A DNA stretch of 64,000 nt from a virus (Duplodnaviria > Caudoviricetes), in the IMG/VR virus record IMGVR_UViG_3300031134_000001, positions 207,027-271,026 of that record, one strand, 5' to 3'. Below the pieces are notes generated by a model that was not told where the DNA came from, searched no databases, and was given only the letters and a program-made list of their open reading frames with translations. Below, piece after piece: positions 2,921-57,717 of the stretch (positions are counted from its first letter, which is position 1; each line of letters begins with the position of its first letter). Position numbers and translations under genes: made by a program.

Positions 2921-2921
2921 C

Positions 2922-3356
2922 ATGAGCCAAGAAATCAACGGTCCTCATCTTGAGACGAATGGTTTTTACTTTCTTCTCAAGAAAGCAGCTTGCGCTACCT
3001 CGCTCAGAAACGCTTTGAGCAGTCACGCTTCTGGCGAGCCCCTCCATCCGAGTTATCTGCATTCGTGGCTCGCTGTCCTGCAAACCTTCAGTCTCTTCCG
3101 GCGGCATCAGATCGTCTTCGAAAAGGAAATCTTGTTTGAGCCAATCGTCATTACCGACGGTAAGCTCGAACCAGTGCTTGATGCCAAGCTGTGCGGCGTT
3201 CTGGTGATCTCTCCGTCGGAAGACTACGAGGGCGGTGAATACAACGGCGCCAAGGTCGAACAAGGCGGCGCTGTGTTCTATCGCCCTGAAGACTACCAAG
3301 ACTTCGCACCGGTCACGGAAGGCGAATGCAAGGCGTACTACTTCGCACTTAAATAG
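2922..3356 (+). CDS. Degenerate 2OG-Fe(II) oxygenase-like (PKHD/PiuC-type) protein; start revised to 2922
   Basis: SPSEDYEGGE...QGGAVFY...PVTEGE matches the family C-terminus; metal-binding His residues not seen. Confidence 0.5.
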   Translation: MSQEINGPHLETNGFYFLLKKAACATSLRNALSSHASGEPLHPSYLHSWLAVLQTFSLFRRHQIVFEKEILFEPIVITDGKLEPVLDAKLCGVLVISPSEDYEGGEYNGAKVEQGGAVFYRPEDYQDFAPVTEGECKAYYFALK

Positions 3357-3362
3357 CAGTTC

Positions 3363-3392
3363 AGCCGAGGGCTCGCAACCCTCGGCTTCTTA
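3363..3392 (+). terminator. Possible intrinsic terminator
   Basis: AGCCGAGGG/CCCTCGGCT 9-bp stem, short T tract. Confidence 0.6.
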
Positions 3393-3410
3393 CCAGGGAA
3401 AGGATGCAAC

Positions 3411-4149: not shown

Positions 4150-4321
4150 CAATCCGCCTCCGACGGGTATTTCCAACGAAGGTTACATGGGTTTTTCACT
4201 GAAACAATTGGCTGCGCTGTCTCAGCCGGCTAAACCTTGGTGGAAAGATATCTTCACCATCAGCGAATTGATTGTCATTGGCTTTTCGATCATCAAGGGT
4301 TTGATTGTTTACTATAACTAA
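4136..4321 (+). CDS. Small membrane protein (61 aa)
   Basis: C-terminal hydrophobic segment IFTISELIVIGFSIIKGLIVYY. Confidence 0.6.
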   Translation: MSPYNNPPPTGISNEGYMGFSLKQLAALSQPAKPWWKDIFTISELIVIGFSIIKGLIVYYN

Positions 4322-4338
4322 CAACATCGGAGGTCGCT

Positions 4339-5115
4339 GTGAAAATCACTATCCTACCGCCACAAGAAGCGCCCAAGCAACTCACTGCCCAACATCGCTC
4401 TAAGTCATTAGGGGAACATTTCGAAGCGTTCATGAGCGTGAACAACATCCGTGGGTTCATGGATGAGTTGTGCGTTGAAGAACCGATCGTGGAAGAAGTC
4501 GCTGCGATGTGGTTGATTGTTGTCTGGGAAGTACAGTACCAGCGACAAGTCGAAGCAATGCGTTTGTATGCCGAGCAACAATGGCTGCTGGAACGTAAAG
4601 CTACGCAAGAGAAGAAGATGGCTGAGCGGGCAGCAAAGCGCGCGCTCGATACGCCTGTGTTGAAAACCGCGCAAGTAGCGCAGTCGATGGTGCGTGGGAC
4701 TGTAGCAGAAGCGGACTCTCAACTCTTCAAAACACCACTGCAGCAATACGACGAAGCTGTCAAACAAGCGCGGGCTAGTGGTAAGATGTTTGACATCGCA
4801 TCACCTAAGCCACTCCGTGACGCCGAGTATCGCGCCCGCTTGAATGAACTTTTGGCGGACAGTGAGATACTGATCTCCGAAGCAGAGATGAGTGATCGCA
4901 TGAAGACCTCACCGCTGCGCAAACATATCGTGGCTAGCCGAGATTTTTACTCGATGCGCGCCGTCACGCCAGAGCAAGCTAAAGCGATTGCCCAAGCTTA
5001 TCAGGAATCTTTGGCGCCTGTTTTCGTATCGACATTTGACATTCAAGAATTTCTGATGTCTTCACCAAAGTCGGAACCTACAGGCGCGTACCGCATCAAC
5101 CCGTACTTAAAATAA
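4339..5115 (+). CDS. Hypothetical coiled-coil-rich protein (258 aa)
   Basis: GGAGG RBS before GTG start. Confidence 0.8.
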   Translation: MKITILPPQEAPKQLTAQHRSKSLGEHFEAFMSVNNIRGFMDELCVEEPIVEEVAAMWLIVVWEVQYQRQVEAMRLYAEQQWLLERKATQEKKMAERAAKRALDTPVLKTAQVAQSMVRGTVAEADSQLFKTPLQQYDEAVKQARASGKMFDIASPKPLRDAEYRARLNELLADSEILISEAEMSDRMKTSPLRKHIVASRDFYSMRAVTPEQAKAIAQAYQESLAPVFVSTFDIQEFLMSSPKSEPTGAYRINPYLK

Positions 5116-25305: not shown

Positions 25306-25744
25306 CCAACAACAATACACCATCGACATTTACGAAGCCGTGGAGCGCTTTAACGGTTACCATCAAGCGTATGCTAACCTCGCAGTACCGGCGGCGCTAC
25401 ACCGCGAATACATCGACATGCTCATCGAGCAAATGATCGCGCACTTTGAAGTCGAGCGCACCGCAGTGCAGATGTTTGTCGGTCACTACACCCAGCTCAT
25501 CACCGACCACTCCATCTCCCCACGCTTCAAATACCATCCGCTGAACTTCCTGCGGCAGATGGATAACGAGGGCTACCGCAACTATATCTACTGCCTGTAC
25601 GGTTTTGCTGAAGACATGTTCAAGATCTTCCAGGCGCATCAGTTCTACAATAGCCGCGGTATTTTGCTCGCTAGCTTTCAGCATATCAACGGGAACAATC
25701 TGTATCTCGTTGTCAGACCGGAGGTACCTGATGTCTTCCATTAA
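25295..25744 (+). CDS. Hypothetical protein (149 aa)
   Basis: Overlapping operon. Confidence 0.85.
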   Translation: MATNQQQYTIDIYEAVERFNGYHQAYANLAVPAALHREYIDMLIEQMIAHFEVERTAVQMFVGHYTQLITDHSISPRFKYHPLNFLRQMDNEGYRNYIYCLYGFAEDMFKIFQAHQFYNSRGILLASFQHINGNNLYLVVRPEVPDVFH

Positions 25745-26231
25745 CGACAAAACTAGCTTTGCACCAGAGCCTCTGTATCCAGGAGATTACTACCTGGTCG
25801 ATTGCGCCGAACCTATCAGTCGCTTCATGCAAACGCCGTACAACGTACGCATGCACATGGCGTCTGATTCAGAAGAGATGACTGAGTACGACATGGTTGA
25901 TGTGGAGCTCACTGAACTGGTGGATGCTCTGGTGATGCGTAACCCAGTGGACCATCTGGACAACCACGCGGACCAGCTGTTAGAAGAAGGTACGAACGTT
26001 CTGCGTGAAGAAGCCATCATGCAAGGCATTCACAAAGAAGGTCAGGTCTATACCAACACACCAGTACAAACCCAACACGCTGATGCTGTACTACAGCTCG
26101 GGTTTGATTTGTCACGACTCTTAAAGCAGTACGGGTTCTATCATGCAACGGGAATGTTGGCAGTAAAGTACCATCAGTTACTGCCCAATGGATTGGTCGT
26201 ATTTAGAAAAGAACCCACGCCGTATTACTAA
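25731..26231 (+). CDS. Hypothetical protein; start revised to 25731
   Basis: GGAGG RBS before ATG 25731. Confidence 0.85.
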   Translation: MSSINDKTSFAPEPLYPGDYYLVDCAEPISRFMQTPYNVRMHMASDSEEMTEYDMVDVELTELVDALVMRNPVDHLDNHADQLLEEGTNVLREEAIMQGIHKEGQVYTNTPVQTQHADAVLQLGFDLSRLLKQYGFYHATGMLAVKYHQLLPNGLVVFRKEPTPYY

Positions 26232-26243
26232 ATACCACCATCT

Positions 26244-26650
26244 TATGTAAACAATGTTCCCCTAGCGTGACTTACCGTGTAGCGTTAAGGTTAAAATGTG
26301 TCACCAGGCCCCAGCAGAGCCAACTTCGGGATAAACTCACTCAGTCGAATGAGGTTGGGGCGAAACAGGTGGTAAACGGTACGGGCCTTCTTCACAGAGC
26401 CAAGCTGTCATTAGGAATTTTCGGTCGAGCGCTGACGCGCGATTATTCGAGTGTGCAACGGCAACCCAGATTGGATGATAGTCCTTCGTACTGCGAAGTC
26501 ACGTTATCTAGTAAGGGTTGTCGGTGCGTAGGTTTCATGTGCCTACAAACTTCTTCGCGGCGCAGGTGCCGGGGTAGAGTTTTGCGACATGATGCTGTTT
26601 TCCTAAGTTTTTCTTTAGCACAGGAGCCTTCGGGTTCCTGTGTCTTTTTA
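26244..26650 (+). ncRNA. Candidate structured ncRNA, about 400 nt, family unrecognised
   Basis: 486-nt gap with no credible CDS; several nested stems; TATG upstream and UUCG terminator downstream. Confidence 0.45.
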
Positions 26651-26657
26651 TGCCGTC
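26619..26657 (+). terminator. Intrinsic terminator with TATGCCGTC tail
   Basis: ACAGGAGCC-TTCG-GGTTCCTGT then T tract. Confidence 0.85.
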
Positions 26658-26679
26658 AATTCTTTTTTTGGTTAATTCT

Positions 26680-26683
26680 TATG
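26680..26683 (+). promoter_or_regulatory. Candidate late promoter TATG
   Basis: TCTTATGAG in AT-rich context upstream of a virion gene; similar TTCTATGAG at 32900; phiKZ late consensus is TATG. Confidence 0.4.
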
Positions 26684-26717
26684 AGTCAACCCCTCGATAA
26701 CCCTTACAGAGAACACC

Positions 26718-28160
26718 ATGCGAAAGTTTTCCTACGCAGCGCCTGTCGTAAAACTTCAACTGTCAGCTGAAGAAGAAGCCATTCAAATTGACGAAAGCAA
26801 TCAGTCGGCACATGAGCTCGAACAAACCAGTGCAGACATCGACCGTCTCGGCGATATCGTCGTTACCGTCAACGAAGTGCAAACTGTCGTTAGTAATACA
26901 CCAGAGATTCAACCGATCGATGCAGCGCTTACTGGCGCCGTTGGTGAAATGGCTGTAGCTGGCACCGATATCGCACCTGACGATATCATCGAAGAGATGC
27001 TTCCCAGTGAAAATGTGAGCACTGAAAGCTTTGTGGCTGCTGCCAAAGAAAAGCTCGCCGCAATGTGGAAAGCCATCAAAGAGTTCTTCGCTAAGATGTG
27101 GAAGCATGTCAAAGATTTCTTTGGCGTCGGTAAAAAGAAAGCCGAGAAGCTCGAAGAAAAGCAAAAGAAAACGGACGAAAGCTACGCTCATTTGAAAGGC
27201 TTAGGCATTCATAACGAAAATGACTACAATGCCTTTGTGCGTGAAGTCGAAAAAGCAATAGACGCAGACGCTAAAAAAGCGGACAAGATTCCCACGTTCC
27301 ATTTCTACAATCAAAATTCGAAGTTGTGTTTGGGCGATTCCACAAAACCACTTCCACCCCGCCAGTTGGTCGTTGAGTTGCAACATCTGCTCAAAGAAGG
27401 CGAACACATGTACAAGTCGTTTTGCGATGGCGTACTAAAGTTGCTCGACTACCTCGCCAACACTGTCGAACAATGTTTGAAAGACCCAGAGCGCGCGGGT
27501 GATACGTATAAAGACATGCGTGAAGGCTATCAAAAGATTGCCGATAAGCTGTTCCTTGATCTGAAATTCCATAACGGCACCACGCCTGGTCCGTTGCTGG
27601 GTGACCTTCATTTGGCAGTAATGAGTTATACACCGGGTGAAGAAAGAGGCACCATGTGGTCGCCGCGTATTCACCTACCATTTACGATGGGAGGCGGCGC
27701 CGATGAAATTCAAGAACCGGTAATGTTATCGGATGGCGTCAAGTTAAGCGAGAATGTCCATGCCTGGATCAGGTTGACTAAAGGATTCTTCGGTCAAGAA
27801 ATGGTCGAGAAGATCCAGCAGAAAAGCCAAAAGGTCGAAAGCCTTATCGAGCAGCTCATTAAGCATCGGCCAACCGACGCCGAACTGCGTGGGGAGCACG
27901 TAGGCAAAGATGAAGACCCAATCGTCAAATATGCCGCAGGCGTGAGTAAGTTTGGGATCGATATAGCAATCGAGCGGCTGGCTTATGAATCTAAAGAGTT
28001 GGTCACTATGGGTGTGACGGCCGCTGTGAAACTGCCACAACGGATTCATCAGATCTTTGAAGTGGCAGCTGATTACGCTGAAGCGTCGTCGATGTATCTG
28101 TTGAAGCACGGTATCGTTGGTGACGCTGCTGAAGCTGATTTTCAAAACAAATTGAAATAA
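26718..28160 (+). CDS. Virion internal head protein (phiKZ-like paralogue family)
   Basis: Acidic propeptide with LSAEE and VSTES protease-type sites, followed by amphipathic helix AKEKLAAMWKAIKEFFAKMWKHVKDFF. Confidence 0.8.
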   Translation: MRKFSYAAPVVKLQLSAEEEAIQIDESNQSAHELEQTSADIDRLGDIVVTVNEVQTVVSNTPEIQPIDAALTGAVGEMAVAGTDIAPDDIIEEMLPSENVSTESFVAAAKEKLAAMWKAIKEFFAKMWKHVKDFFGVGKKKAEKLEEKQKKTDESYAHLKGLGIHNENDYNAFVREVEKAIDADAKKADKIPTFHFYNQNSKLCLGDSTKPLPPRQLVVELQHLLKEGEHMYKSFCDGVLKLLDYLANTVEQCLKDPERAGDTYKDMREGYQKIADKLFLDLKFHNGTTPGPLLGDLHLAVMSYTPGEERGTMWSPRIHLPFTMGGGADEIQEPVMLSDGVKLSENVHAWIRLTKGFFGQEMVEKIQQKSQKVESLIEQLIKHRPTDAELRGEHVGKDEDPIVKYAAGVSKFGIDIAIERLAYESKELVTMGVTAAVKLPQRIHQIFEVAADYAEASSMYLLKHGIVGDAAEADFQNKLK

Positions 28161-28162
28161 CA

Positions 28163-28218
28163 GCATAACTCCCTCTACCCCAACGGGTAGAGGGAGGCTA
28201 TGACGTCTATTTCTTTTT
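28163..28218. terminator. Bidirectional terminator between convergent genes
   Basis: CTCCCTCTACCC/GGGTAGAGGGAG stem with GCATA and TATGACGTC flanks and T tract. Confidence 0.85.
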
Positions 28219-28563
28219 TGCCCATTTCGGCAAAGGTACGGTCTTACCAGCTAACCCGTGTGGGCTATCGGAACAGAAGTCGATCTTCCCATCCCGGATA
28301 AAGTAATGGCATCGGGTGTAATGTACCGGACGAATCTCTTCGTAGGCATTACGCGGCTCACTACTTTGAATACGCATGGACGGATTGAACGTGGGTTCGA
28401 GGTAGTTGTAATTAAACGTCCACAAGTTCCCTGCATCTCCCGTCACGTATTGGTGAGGTTCCTCACAAGCAGGACACCAGTGATAGTAATACCATCGCCG
28501 ATCGTCCACATTAAAGAAGCGGCGCAGGTAAGGACCGGCCTGCTCCATTTCATCGTAACGCAT
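28207..28563 (-). CDS. Small Cys/His metal-binding protein (DUF6527-like)
   Basis: WCPACEEPH...WTFN....PTFNPS...CHYFIRDGKIDFCSDSPHGLAGKTVPLP. Confidence 0.75.
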   Translation of the reverse strand: MRYDEMEQAGPYLRRFFNVDDRRWYYYHWCPACEEPHQYVTGDAGNLWTFNYNYLEPTFNPSMRIQSSEPRNAYEEIRPVHYTRCHYFIRDGKIDFCSDSPHGLAGKTVPLPKWAKKK

Positions 28564-28569
28564 TTCTTT

Positions 28570-29058
28570 TCACCATTGCAAATAAACTGGTTGACTTTCT
28601 AGGCCCAGACTCAGTTTCTCTTTCAAGTACCAATGCCCAGGCTCGTTGTTCCATGATGGCTTAGGACGACCACGCACAAAGCCCAAACTCGTAAAGAGGT
28701 TAATGGACTTGGTGTTGGCGTCTTCAATCCACGATAGACACGGCGTGTGGTTGGCGAAGAAGGTTTTAAGGACCGACTTCATGATACCGCGCCCCTCATA
28801 CTGCGGTAGCAGAAACAAGGTACCGGCACGCCAATACTCTTTCCCATACAGCTTACGCTGGACAGGTGTATGAAACCCCACAGGCATGTCATGCGGGCCA
28901 TACAGAATCACCACACACCGCGGTTTCTTTGGGATGACTTCCGTTTCATCACCCCCCAAGAACTTGCTCTTTTCAGCTGCGCGTAACACAGCTTGAAAGC
29001 ACAAGGCTTGCTTGGGGGAGAGTTGGTCTAAGTCTAACGTTTTAACGACGTCTACCAT
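28570..29058 (-). CDS. GNAT-family acetyltransferase
   Basis: LFLLPQYEGRGIM acetyl-CoA motif A; NTKSINLFTSLGF motif B. Confidence 0.85.
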   Translation of the reverse strand: MVDVVKTLDLDQLSPKQALCFQAVLRAAEKSKFLGGDETEVIPKKPRCVVILYGPHDMPVGFHTPVQRKLYGKEYWRAGTLFLLPQYEGRGIMKSVLKTFFANHTPCLSWIEDANTKSINLFTSLGFVRGRPKPSWNNEPGHWYLKEKLSLGLESQPVYLQW

Positions 29059-39358: not shown

Positions 39359-39397
39359 CATCCGCAGCTTCACAACCAACAACAAAGGAGATGCATC

Positions 39398-39703
39398 GTG
39401 GGCAAGAAAGAAGAACCGTCCGGATGGCACGCGCACTTTGAGAGCTTGCCAACTTTTAACCAGGAATTGGCAATTGCTGAAAGTAGCAAACCAAAAAAGA
39501 AACCGCGCGCGGCGCGTAAAAAGAGCAAGCGGATTACCGTCAAACCCGCAGGGATTGGCGTAGTGCGGGACATGGATACCAAGTCATTTGGCTATCCGGT
39601 CCTGAATAAAATCATGCACCAGCTGAATTCTAGCAGGCAAACCATGGTTGAACCTAAAAATACGCCGCAGGAACAGGGCGAAGCAGTAAACAATAAGCAA
39701 TAA
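39398..39703 (+). CDS. Small basic protein (101 aa)
   Basis: AAGGAG RBS with GTG start; KPKKKPRAARKKSKR. Confidence 0.75.
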   Translation: MGKKEEPSGWHAHFESLPTFNQELAIAESSKPKKKPRAARKKSKRITVKPAGIGVVRDMDTKSFGYPVLNKIMHQLNSSRQTMVEPKNTPQEQGEAVNNKQ

Positions 39704-52682: not shown

Positions 52683-52726
52683 TCCCCCCCACCCAGTCCC
52701 TATCAAGGGCTGGGCTTTATGACGTC
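52677..52726 (+). terminator. Terminator-like hairpin with GCATA/TATGACGTC flanks
   Basis: CCCAGTCCC/GGGCTGGG stem. Confidence 0.7.
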
Positions 52727-52747
52727 TAAAAATGTGGCACTAGAATA

Positions 52748-52764
52748 TTTCAAGGCTATATTCC
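52748..52764 (+). promoter_or_regulatory. Candidate early promoter TTTCAAGGCTATATTCC
   Basis: Same TTTC-N5-TATATY spacing; heads an operon of small accessory genes. Confidence 0.55.
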
Positions 52765-52821
52765 ATCAGTGAATAAGAAGCAGCAATGCCTCTACCCATC
52801 TAACTTTTAAGGAGCTTGACC

Positions 52822-52971
52822 ATGTGCGAACAACCTAAAGAAGAACCAGTGATGCAGTACAAGCACGTCTGTGGCTACTGTGGTTCGACCGAGCCGCTTG
52901 TTACGTACGAAGAAATGTACGGCCCTGGCGCACACGGCCACGACTGCTGCCCTGATTGTGGCGGCGTTTAA
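52822..52971 (+). CDS. 49-aa zinc-ribbon microprotein (not in ORF track)
   Basis: AAGGAG RBS; MCEQPKEEPVMQYKHVCGYCGSTEPLVTYEEMYGPGAHGHDCCPDCGGV. Confidence 0.75.
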   Translation: MCEQPKEEPVMQYKHVCGYCGSTEPLVTYEEMYGPGAHGHDCCPDCGGV

Positions 52972-52997
52972 TTCTAAATAACTTAAGGAGATTTACC

Positions 52998-56772: not shown

Positions 56773-57303
56773 ATGCTTAAGAAAGAATTCACCAGTATTT
56801 CCTCGGACAACAACCTGTTCGACCTGGAACACATCGTGCGCGTCAGCATGAAGGCTGCGAACATGAGTAAGGAAGAGCAGTACGTTCGCGTCGAAGCGTA
56901 TCTGCGAAAGAAGCATCCCAACGCATCGCCAGAAGTTTTCCCTACGCTTACTGCGATGTTCATCGGCTCAGACATGACGTTCAAGCATTTCTGCCAAATG
57001 ATGGATGCGCTGAACTGTGATCTGATGATCTCGGTGCGCTTGCCGCTGAGCGCGAACTTGCATCCACCGATCTGGGACAAGTCGATCAACGAACTGGACA
57101 TGCCGGTACGCGTGACGAACATCCTGCGTGATCGCGAGTCCATCCACTCGATCGGTCAACTCATCAGCCACAGCAGCAATTCGCTGATGAAGATCCCTGG
57201 CTTTGGCCACAGCGCTTTGGCGTATGTGACTGAAGCGGTGACTAAAGCCGGCCTCGCTCTGGATACCAAGACCAACGGCTGGACGCCACCTAAGGAAGAG
57301 TGA
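56773..57303 (+). CDS. RNA polymerase alpha-CTD-like domain protein with N-terminal HTH-like domain; start revised to 56773
   Basis: SINELDMPVRVTNILRDRESIHSIGQLISHSSNSLMKIPGFGHSALAYV vs alpha-CTD [47 protein letters not shown]. Confidence 0.85.
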   Translation: MLKKEFTSISSDNNLFDLEHIVRVSMKAANMSKEEQYVRVEAYLRKKHPNASPEVFPTLTAMFIGSDMTFKHFCQMMDALNCDLMISVRLPLSANLHPPIWDKSINELDMPVRVTNILRDRESIHSIGQLISHSSNSLMKIPGFGHSALAYVTEAVTKAGLALDTKTNGWTPPKEE

Positions 57304-57470
57304 TGGAGCTGACGCCAGTTAAAAACCAAGACCTCGCGAATGCTTACGTTGATCTCATGCGCTTTAAGAAAGACATGACGCAGCAACAGATCATTCGTGC
57401 TTCGCTGGCCTTGGAGACTAAAAACCTCGATGGACTCAAAGCCATCAAAGCCGAACTGAATCAATCGTGA
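57303..57470 (+). CDS. 55-aa microprotein (not in ORF track)
   Basis: TGATG overlap with upstream stop; MELTPVKNQDLANAYVDLMRFKKD... Confidence 0.6.
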   Translation: MELTPVKNQDLANAYVDLMRFKKDMTQQQIIRASLALETKNLDGLKAIKAELNQS

Positions 57471-57649
57471 AACGGCGCCCTAAGAAAATGCCCACTCGCT
57501 GGCGGTTGATGTGGTATCAGCAAGTCGGGAAGTGTCTTATCCTGAAGTGGCATACTGGTACCGAGTATGAGTGCGATGTATTGCAACGCGCTTGTGCTGC
57601 AGCCGGTGAATGGCATCGCCTCTGCCCGCCTGGATCATTTAAAGAGTGA
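57467..57649 (+). CDS. 60-aa hypothetical protein
   Basis: GTGA overlap; precedes a hairpin. Confidence 0.5.
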   Translation: MKRRPKKMPTRWRLMWYQQVGKCLILKWHTGTEYECDVLQRACAAAGEWHRLCPPGSFKE

Positions 57650-57653
57650 TCTC

Positions 57654-57695
57654 TTAACCACTTCTTTCGGGAGGTGGTTAATGGCTTTGCTTTTA
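57654..57695 (+). terminator. Terminator-like hairpin
   Basis: TTAACCACTTCT-TTCG-GGAGGTGGTTAA. Confidence 0.75.
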
Positions 57696-57717
57696 TAACC
57701 AACAACAAGGACGTATC

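Follow-up and report, generated by a model that had tools for sequence, protein, structure and literature searches.

The DNA analysed here, referred to as the window, is a stretch of 64,000 nucleotides corresponding to bases 207027-271026 of an IMG/VR virus record that is 271 kb long and carries direct terminal repeats. The DnaB-type helicase of this genome finds its best matches in Burkholderia phage FLC9 and Ralstonia phages RP12 and RP31 (47% and 43% identity), and more distant ones in phiKZ-like phages of Pseudomonas, Erwinia, and Xanthomonas. The source is an uncultured phiKZ-like (chimallivirus-type) jumbo phage, member of a small uncultured clade. Within the window, 486 nt (26232-26717) separate two credible genes, both encoded on the plus strand, and it is between them that an earlier note, made from the sequence alone, had placed a candidate structured non-coding RNA. 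The description of this stretch as the largest gap is accurate locally, but it does not extend to the whole window, where a crude ORF call (ATG start, at least 70 aa) leaves the stretches 57144-57717 and 2921-3410 equally long or longer; these two, together with 4150-4431, 39359-39583, and 52683-52997, are other gene-free stretches in the window, ranging from 225 to 574 nt.

The upstream gene (25731-26231, +) is, according to the ORF list, the last in a tight plus-strand array, and encodes a protein of 166 aa that shares 53-60% amino acid identity with its counterparts in the two relatives described below. This protein matches nothing in Pfam or PHROG, and its AF2 model, a helical bundle with a small sheet (pLDDT 79, called confident), has no fold match in the PDB. 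The downstream gene (26718-28160, +) encodes a 480-aa internal head protein of the phiKZ_IP family, an assignment supported by PF12699 (phiKZ internal head proteins), with 33.1 bits against a Pfam cut-off of 27, and by PHROG 2497 (internal head protein). The head-protein neighbour that had been proposed for the RNA is therefore confirmed. The genome has five IP paralogs, this one included; a long gap before another of them (genome 11474-11988) was considered as an RNA locus and discarded, as it looks coding. Further downstream, on the opposite strand (28207-29058, -), the window encodes a DUF6527 protein of 118 aa and a 162-aa protein with a weak resemblance to GNAT acetyltransferases, both of which are kept in one relative, L003, and the first of them in the other, L089, too.

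The internal head protein has a single relative (32% identity) among 5.8 billion proteins. This relative is encoded on the IMG/VR contig L003, where the same intergenic element is present upstream of its gene. L089, in turn, is the one true homolog among the at least 119 matches listed from a metagenome pattern scan, which were mostly due to chance, as screened with blastn and nhmmer. The two relatives are, like the phage of the window, uncultured. The RNA family has three known members, namely window 26247-26650, L003:5548-5930, and L089:5601-6011 (minus strand of the locus), with lengths between 383 and 411 nt (around 404 nt in the window), and further homologs may exist beyond these. The gene order of L003 is collinear with that of the window, while in L089 the upstream genes are also the same, but the RNA is followed by three tandem internal-head-protein paralogs instead of one, the flanking proteins of both relatives being 33-79% identical to those of the window. 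The first gene downstream of the RNA in L089 is a paralog with around 40% identity, over the N-terminal 130 or so residues only. The three tandem paralogs of L089 (391-5536, -) have 587, 596, and 487 aa, as against one such gene in the window and in L003, so this gene family expands and contracts beside the RNA.

Outside these three genomes, no other copy was found. None of 50,697 phage records matched the region in a blastn search, protein-guided IMG/VR searches for relatives returned nothing or one contig only, exact-pattern IMG/VR scans returned the same single contig, and two scans of prokaryote genomes found no copy of the RNA. The core covariance model gave only chance-level matches (E>=0.35) in five cultured jumbo phages, namely Burkholderia FLC9 and FLC8, Ralstonia RP12, Xanthomonas RTH11, and Erwinia pEa_SNUABM_54, a set in which phiKZ and 201phi2-1 are not included. 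Inside the 271-kb genome, there is no paralog either: nhmmer with the full alignment and the core covariance model match this locus only, and the conserved motifs of the RNA do not recur elsewhere.

The folding of the stretch is better than expected by chance. The plus strand of 26232-26660 has a minimum free energy of -150.6 kcal/mol (z = -3.20), a value that none of 100 dinucleotide shuffles equalled, against a z-score of -0.49 for the minus strand. The same bias towards the sense strand is present in all three genomes, with z-scores of -3.20, -2.37, and -4.02 for the sense strand and -0.49, -1.92, and -1.88 for the antisense strand. The consensus structure derives from RNAalifold on the three-sequence alignment A4 and from separate folds of the segments of each sequence, which are in agreement, and comprises 87 pairs after the removal of two weak RNAalifold helices prior to pair counting. 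Across the three sequences, 96.5% of the cells of this consensus form standard pairs.

The syntenic comparison that the earlier note had called for adds covariation to this picture. Compensatory double changes affect 19 of the 87 pairs in the three genomes, whereas 500 shuffles gave 6.8±2.1 such pairs, none of them reaching 19, and slid controls, where the partners were shifted by 1-3 columns, gave only 1-3. The terminator accounts for seven of the 19, and the other twelve are distributed over H1, H2, H3, H4, P5, H6, and H7. With three sequences, these covariation statistics are thin, and the outer stem of H4 and the whole of H5, being invariant, are neither supported nor contradicted by them. 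The suggestion that several G-U pairs favour a plus-strand RNA also finds support, since there are 44 G·U cells for a single A·C cell, and the other strand, or the DNA, would pair only 79.5% of the cells. This excess of G·U, together with the sense z-scores, establishes that the RNA strand is the plus one. We consider it highly probable that this is a real structured non-coding RNA.

The RNA (26247-26650, +) can be divided into a 5' domain, comprising H1-H4, and a 3' domain that P5 closes, all elements being on the plus strand. The alignment folds begin with an unpaired 5' tail of around 12 nt from 26247, followed by the 5' hairpin H1 (26260-26291), with the invariant apical loop ACUUACCGUGU and 11 pairs, 2 of them with double changes and 97% of the cells paired. 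H2 (26299-26305 / 26368-26374), with 7 pairs, 3 double changes, and 100% pairing, encloses H3 and a variable inner hairpin. H3 (26320-26358; 12 pairs, 1 double change) contains the first stem that had been reported, in which CCAACTTC (26320-26327) pairs with GAGGTTGG (26351-26358). The last element of this domain is H4 (26376-26408), formed by an invariant outer stem, ACGGU/GCUGU, whose 5 pairs never vary, and by a variable apical stem with 1 double change (C-G to U-A); the local folds of the three genomes agree on H4. The sequence UACCGU of the H1 loop (26273-26278) is perfectly complementary to ACGGUA (26376-26381), and both are invariant; a long-range pseudoknot between them is possible, and it would compete with the outer stem of H4.

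The 3' domain is a multi-branch one, closed by the long-range helix P5 (26412-26417 / 26600-26605; 1 double change), which is formed in the minimum-free-energy fold of the 3' domain of each genome and contains H5, H6, H7, and H8. H5 (26420-26451) is invariant. H6 (26455-26527; 2 double changes) corresponds to the second reported stem, CGGCAACCC (26459-26467) with GGGTTGTCG (26515-26523), enclosing CTTCG (26484-26488) paired with CGAAG (26494-26498). Its length ranges from 39 to 73 nt and its interior cannot be aligned, yet it forms a long perfect hairpin in all three genomes. H7 (26528-26546; 2 double changes) is the third reported stem, GTAGG (26528-26532) with CCTAC (26542-26546), and H8 (26558-26571) completes the domain. 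All the stems that had been listed from the sequence of the window are thus found at their positions, and in two distant relatives they persist through compensatory changes.

Conservation is unevenly distributed along the molecule. The most conserved part (26402-26465) comprises the junction, the 5' strand of P5, H5, and the base of H6, and there L003 and L089 are identical over 64 consecutive nucleotides, the window differing from them at 7 positions. The near-invariant core of the RNA amounts to around 100 nt and extends to unpaired bases; the hairpins at the periphery, by contrast, vary freely in sequence and length and keep their pairing. As a whole, the RNA is 66-70% identical among the three genomes, compared with 56-60% for the adjacent gene of the 166-aa protein. 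Variable columns by position modulo 3 number 47/61/48 in the RNA, without periodicity, and 85/64/135 in that gene, with the expected codon periodicity. The RNA is therefore under stronger sequence constraint than the neighbouring proteins, which makes it very likely that it is functional. Altogether, the stretch 26247-26650 (+) probably represents the gene for a conserved multi-domain non-coding RNA of around 400 nt and 12 or so helices, from a small uncultured clade of jumbo phages.

At its 3' side, the RNA is delimited by an intrinsic terminator (26618-26657, +) detected in the terminator scan. This consists of a stem-loop with an 11-bp stem and a UUCG loop (26618-26643), which is followed by CTTTTT, with the T run at 26645-26649, and by TATGCCGTC at 26649-26657; the UUCG-loop terminator of the earlier note is hence upheld. 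The stem shows double changes at 7 of its 11 pairs, with the UUCG loop being kept. The consensus TATGC[CT]GT[CT] occurs 29 times in the 271-kb genome, and in 28 of these cases it comes directly after a GC-rich hairpin, which identifies it as the terminator-associated motif of this phage. The terminator of the RNA is one of the 28 sites and has the arrangement of the lineage, a GC-rich hairpin directly before (T)TATGCCGTC, so the predicted 3' end of the RNA is the standard intrinsic terminator of the phage. Comparable conserved terminator motifs have been reported for phiKZ and 201phi2-1 (PMC10914365; PMC11512511). The TATGC[CT]GT[CT] sites often lack a U tract and often form mirror-image pairs between convergent genes; examples in the window, besides 26649-26657, are those at 35 (-), 10185 (+), 16279 (+), 28167 (-), 31242 (-), and 59340 (-). 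The motif itself contains the TATG late-promoter core.

The 5' end is marked by a TATG (26244-26247, +), the putative core of a late promoter of the non-virion RNA polymerase, invariant in the three homologs and found, as reported, within the sequence TCTTATG (26241-26247). In phiKZ, the late promoters have T(-3)ATG(+1) as their sole conserved feature, and in vitro all four bases are needed, the sequence downstream of the start also having an influence (PMC7598289). Here, the context of the TATG is conserved as well, in the form CCAT-N2/3-TATGTAAAC, where TATGTAAAC is invariant and is located 13-17 nt after the upstream stop codon in the three genomes. Of the three copies of TATGTAAAC in the genome, two are intergenic. 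The other copies are at genome positions 23616 (+) and 159036 (-), one of them 33 nt upstream of a gene start, and this proximity to another gene start hints at a shared type of promoter. TATG, for its part, is a motif of four bases that also follows most terminators of the genome, and the search for a promoter motif beyond it in the genome extracted none. The start of transcription is predicted at G26247, which is a reasonable inference by analogy with these promoters, and the conserved TATG is the single feature that leads us to propose late expression of the RNA. An own promoter giving rise to a discrete transcript is, in our view, moderately probable.

Beyond the terminator, a third signal is found, consisting of a T-run, GGTTAAT, and TTATG (26663-26683, +), conserved in the three genomes. 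This putative promoter of the downstream gene is located 35 nt before the start codon of the head protein, is unique in the genome, and probably restarts transcription for the head-protein gene.

Known RNA classes do not account for the element. Searches against Rfam 15, which includes GOLLD, ROOL, OLE, RNase P, tmRNA, 6S, SRP, introns, riboswitches, and small ribozymes, gave no match in the element at E<=10, nor did the whole window give any at gathering scores. In the L003 and L089 homologs, the sole overlap with an Rfam model was a chance-level one with atoC (21 bits vs a gathering score of 50, E = 7.1), and ARAGORN found no tRNA or tmRNA genes in the 64-kb window, all in line with the initial impression that no known motif is present. 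A group I or group II intron was also discarded, given that the upstream ORF ends in a stop codon and the downstream one starts with its own ATG after the terminator, that both flanking genes are complete in the relatives, and that no intron model was matched. Elsewhere in the genome (192780-193215), around 14 kb before the window, there is a hammerhead-like core, CUGAUGAG...CGAAAC, followed by some 340 nt without a gene that end in a hairpin plus TTTTTTATGCTGTC. The RNA after this core has no detectable sequence or core in common with the one studied here, and a repeated module was rejected, as the genome contains no second copy or shared motif, the hammerhead-linked RNA included. The RNA described here is a new family among phage-borne structured non-coding RNAs, and its boundaries, strand, and fold, now defined, make it a candidate Rfam family.

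With respect to the role of this RNA, the reading that we place first is that of a late RNA which stands alone and acts in trans by binding a protein or another nucleic acid, although this can only be put forward tentatively. The non-virion RNA polymerase of the phage would transcribe it late in infection from its own TATG, starting at G26247. The terminator would then release it as a discrete transcript, and the downstream head-protein gene would be transcribed anew from a TATG of its own. The RNA would act in trans via its near-invariant core, which would offer a platform to which a protein or another nucleic acid binds, as in an RNP or scaffold RNA. The basis for this proposal is the coexistence of a near-invariant core, unpaired bases included, with peripheral hairpins that vary freely. 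Such a pattern is typical of RNAs whose specific surface is recognised by a partner. Two leads to a partner or target were followed, and neither indicated one: the 166-aa neighbour has no recognisable fold, and a duplex-energy screen against all the translation start regions pointed to no target, this being a crude screen in which long sequences allow huge loops.

Second in order comes a cis-acting function, which we regard as doubtful. According to it, the RNA would belong to the internal head protein gene as its 5' leader: transcription would start at 26247 and mostly stop at the terminator, and regulated read-through or processing would set the amount of head-protein mRNA. The position of the RNA, directly upstream of an internal head protein gene in the three genomes, agrees with such a role, and there are precedents for it, since premature termination gives rise to 17 candidate non-coding RNAs from 5'UTRs in phiKZ and 8 in 201phi2-1, several of which precede structural genes (PMC10914365; PMC11512511). 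However, no homologously placed antiterminator exists in the three genomes, even though 7 of the 11 pairs in the terminator stem have changed. The alternative partners that fit its arms best lie at non-homologous places across the three RNAs and are weaker than the hairpin itself, and a riboswitch or attenuator was therefore rejected. The conserved T-run/GGTTAAT/TTATG element, with its own TATG, also lies between the terminator and the start codon. Moreover, the RNA is conserved in L089 in spite of the distant paralog that follows it there, none of the remaining four IP paralogs is accompanied by a comparable RNA element, and an RNA of around 400 nt and 12 helices stands well apart from the known leader-derived phage RNAs, which have less than 250 nt.

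The trans-acting reading also has to be weighed against the possibility, ranked third and rather unlikely, that the RNA has no promoter of its own and is the structured 3' UTR of the upstream operon, either protecting the mRNA from exonucleases or being cleaved off as a 3'UTR-derived RNA. The terminator scan found no terminator separating the RNA from the stop codon at 26231, and the RNA could be partly or wholly the 3' end of that operon. Phage 3'UTR-derived non-coding RNAs are documented too, as in the case of ncRNA1 and ncRNA2 from PAK_P3 (PMC10914365). Against this, the invariant TATGTAAAC just past the stop codon in the three genomes fits a late promoter, the terminator hairpin alone would suffice for protecting the 3' end, and stabilisation would leave unexplained a near-invariant core of 100 nt with conserved unpaired bases.

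Much less probable is that the stretch is a protein-coding gene, whether for the 167-aa ORF at 26267 or for a small peptide, with its folding being incidental. The first of these frames (26267-26770) is open in the genome of the window alone; it is closed in both relatives, crosses the terminator, and overlaps the next gene. A short ORF starting with MRDFRSSVTARLSECATA, inside the invariant block, is common to L003 and L089, but in the window its ATG is replaced by ATT, and the ends of the ORF are not the same. The longest frames of the relatives have 36-55 aa, in different frames and with different sequences, and no ORF is common to the three genomes. Furthermore, indels are not multiples of three and, as mentioned above, substitutions show no codon periodicity, all of which supports the non-coding nature that had been proposed. 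A DNA-level element, such as a replication origin, a packaging site, or a cruciform, is hardly credible, since the sequence is indeed conserved, non-coding, and rich in inverted repeats, but its pairing is specific to one strand, the antisense z-scores are weak, and a promoter-like motif and a terminator frame the RNA in the direction of the neighbouring genes.

Among the systems already described, those closest in their setting are the 5'UTR-derived and intergenic non-coding RNA candidates of phiKZ and 201phi2-1, found by ONT-cappable-seq and Grad-seq (PMC10914365; PMC11512511). Like the RNA of the window, these come from jumbo phages with their own RNA polymerases, present a start followed by a terminator before a structural gene, are kept among related phages, end at a phage-specific terminator motif, and have no assigned function. 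However, they are mapped transcripts, whereas the RNA of the window is known from sequence signals, and they are simpler, with 89 to around 250 nt and one to few hairpins, as compared with some 400 nt and 12 helices in two domains. The candidates were filtered at <250 nt (PMC11512511), and the three members of the new family, at 383-411 nt, are above the size of the phiKZ-type 5'UTR-derived RNAs.

In size and ornateness, the RNA is nearer to GOLLD and ROOL, although it is smaller, with around 400 nt. These two RNAs measure approximately 580-800 nt. Together with OLE, they are large, strongly conserved, multi-helix non-coding RNAs of bacteria, phages, and prophages, often borne by phages, where variable peripheral stems surround conserved cores, and their biochemical function is unassigned, as is that of the RNA described here. 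The latter differs from GOLLD and ROOL, which have been studied by cryo-EM (10.1101/2024.12.08.627333), in that it does not match their Rfam models at E = 10, belongs to phages of other hosts, and is not located beside tRNA genes.

To our knowledge, phages have yielded only a small number of large non-coding RNAs with a conserved structure, and hardly anything has been learned about what RNA does in the nucleus-forming jumbo phages, whose polymerases transcribe inside a protein shell. A far-reaching reading, which for now we consider improbable, would make this RNA the founding member of a new class of large RNAs of these phages, expressed late and with its core acting as an RNP subunit or a ribozyme, rather than a mere leader or UTR. 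If this were true, possible roles would include head assembly, DNA packaging at the phage nucleus, or the sequestering of a host factor or defence protein. In this respect, a last comparison, by analogy only, is that with the pRNA of phi29, another structured non-coding RNA encoded by a phage. The pRNA has around 174 nt, its gene lies at the end of the genome, and an early promoter drives its expression, whereas the RNA of the window adjoins a head-protein gene and has a late-type promoter motif; what both may have in common is a role in virion assembly.
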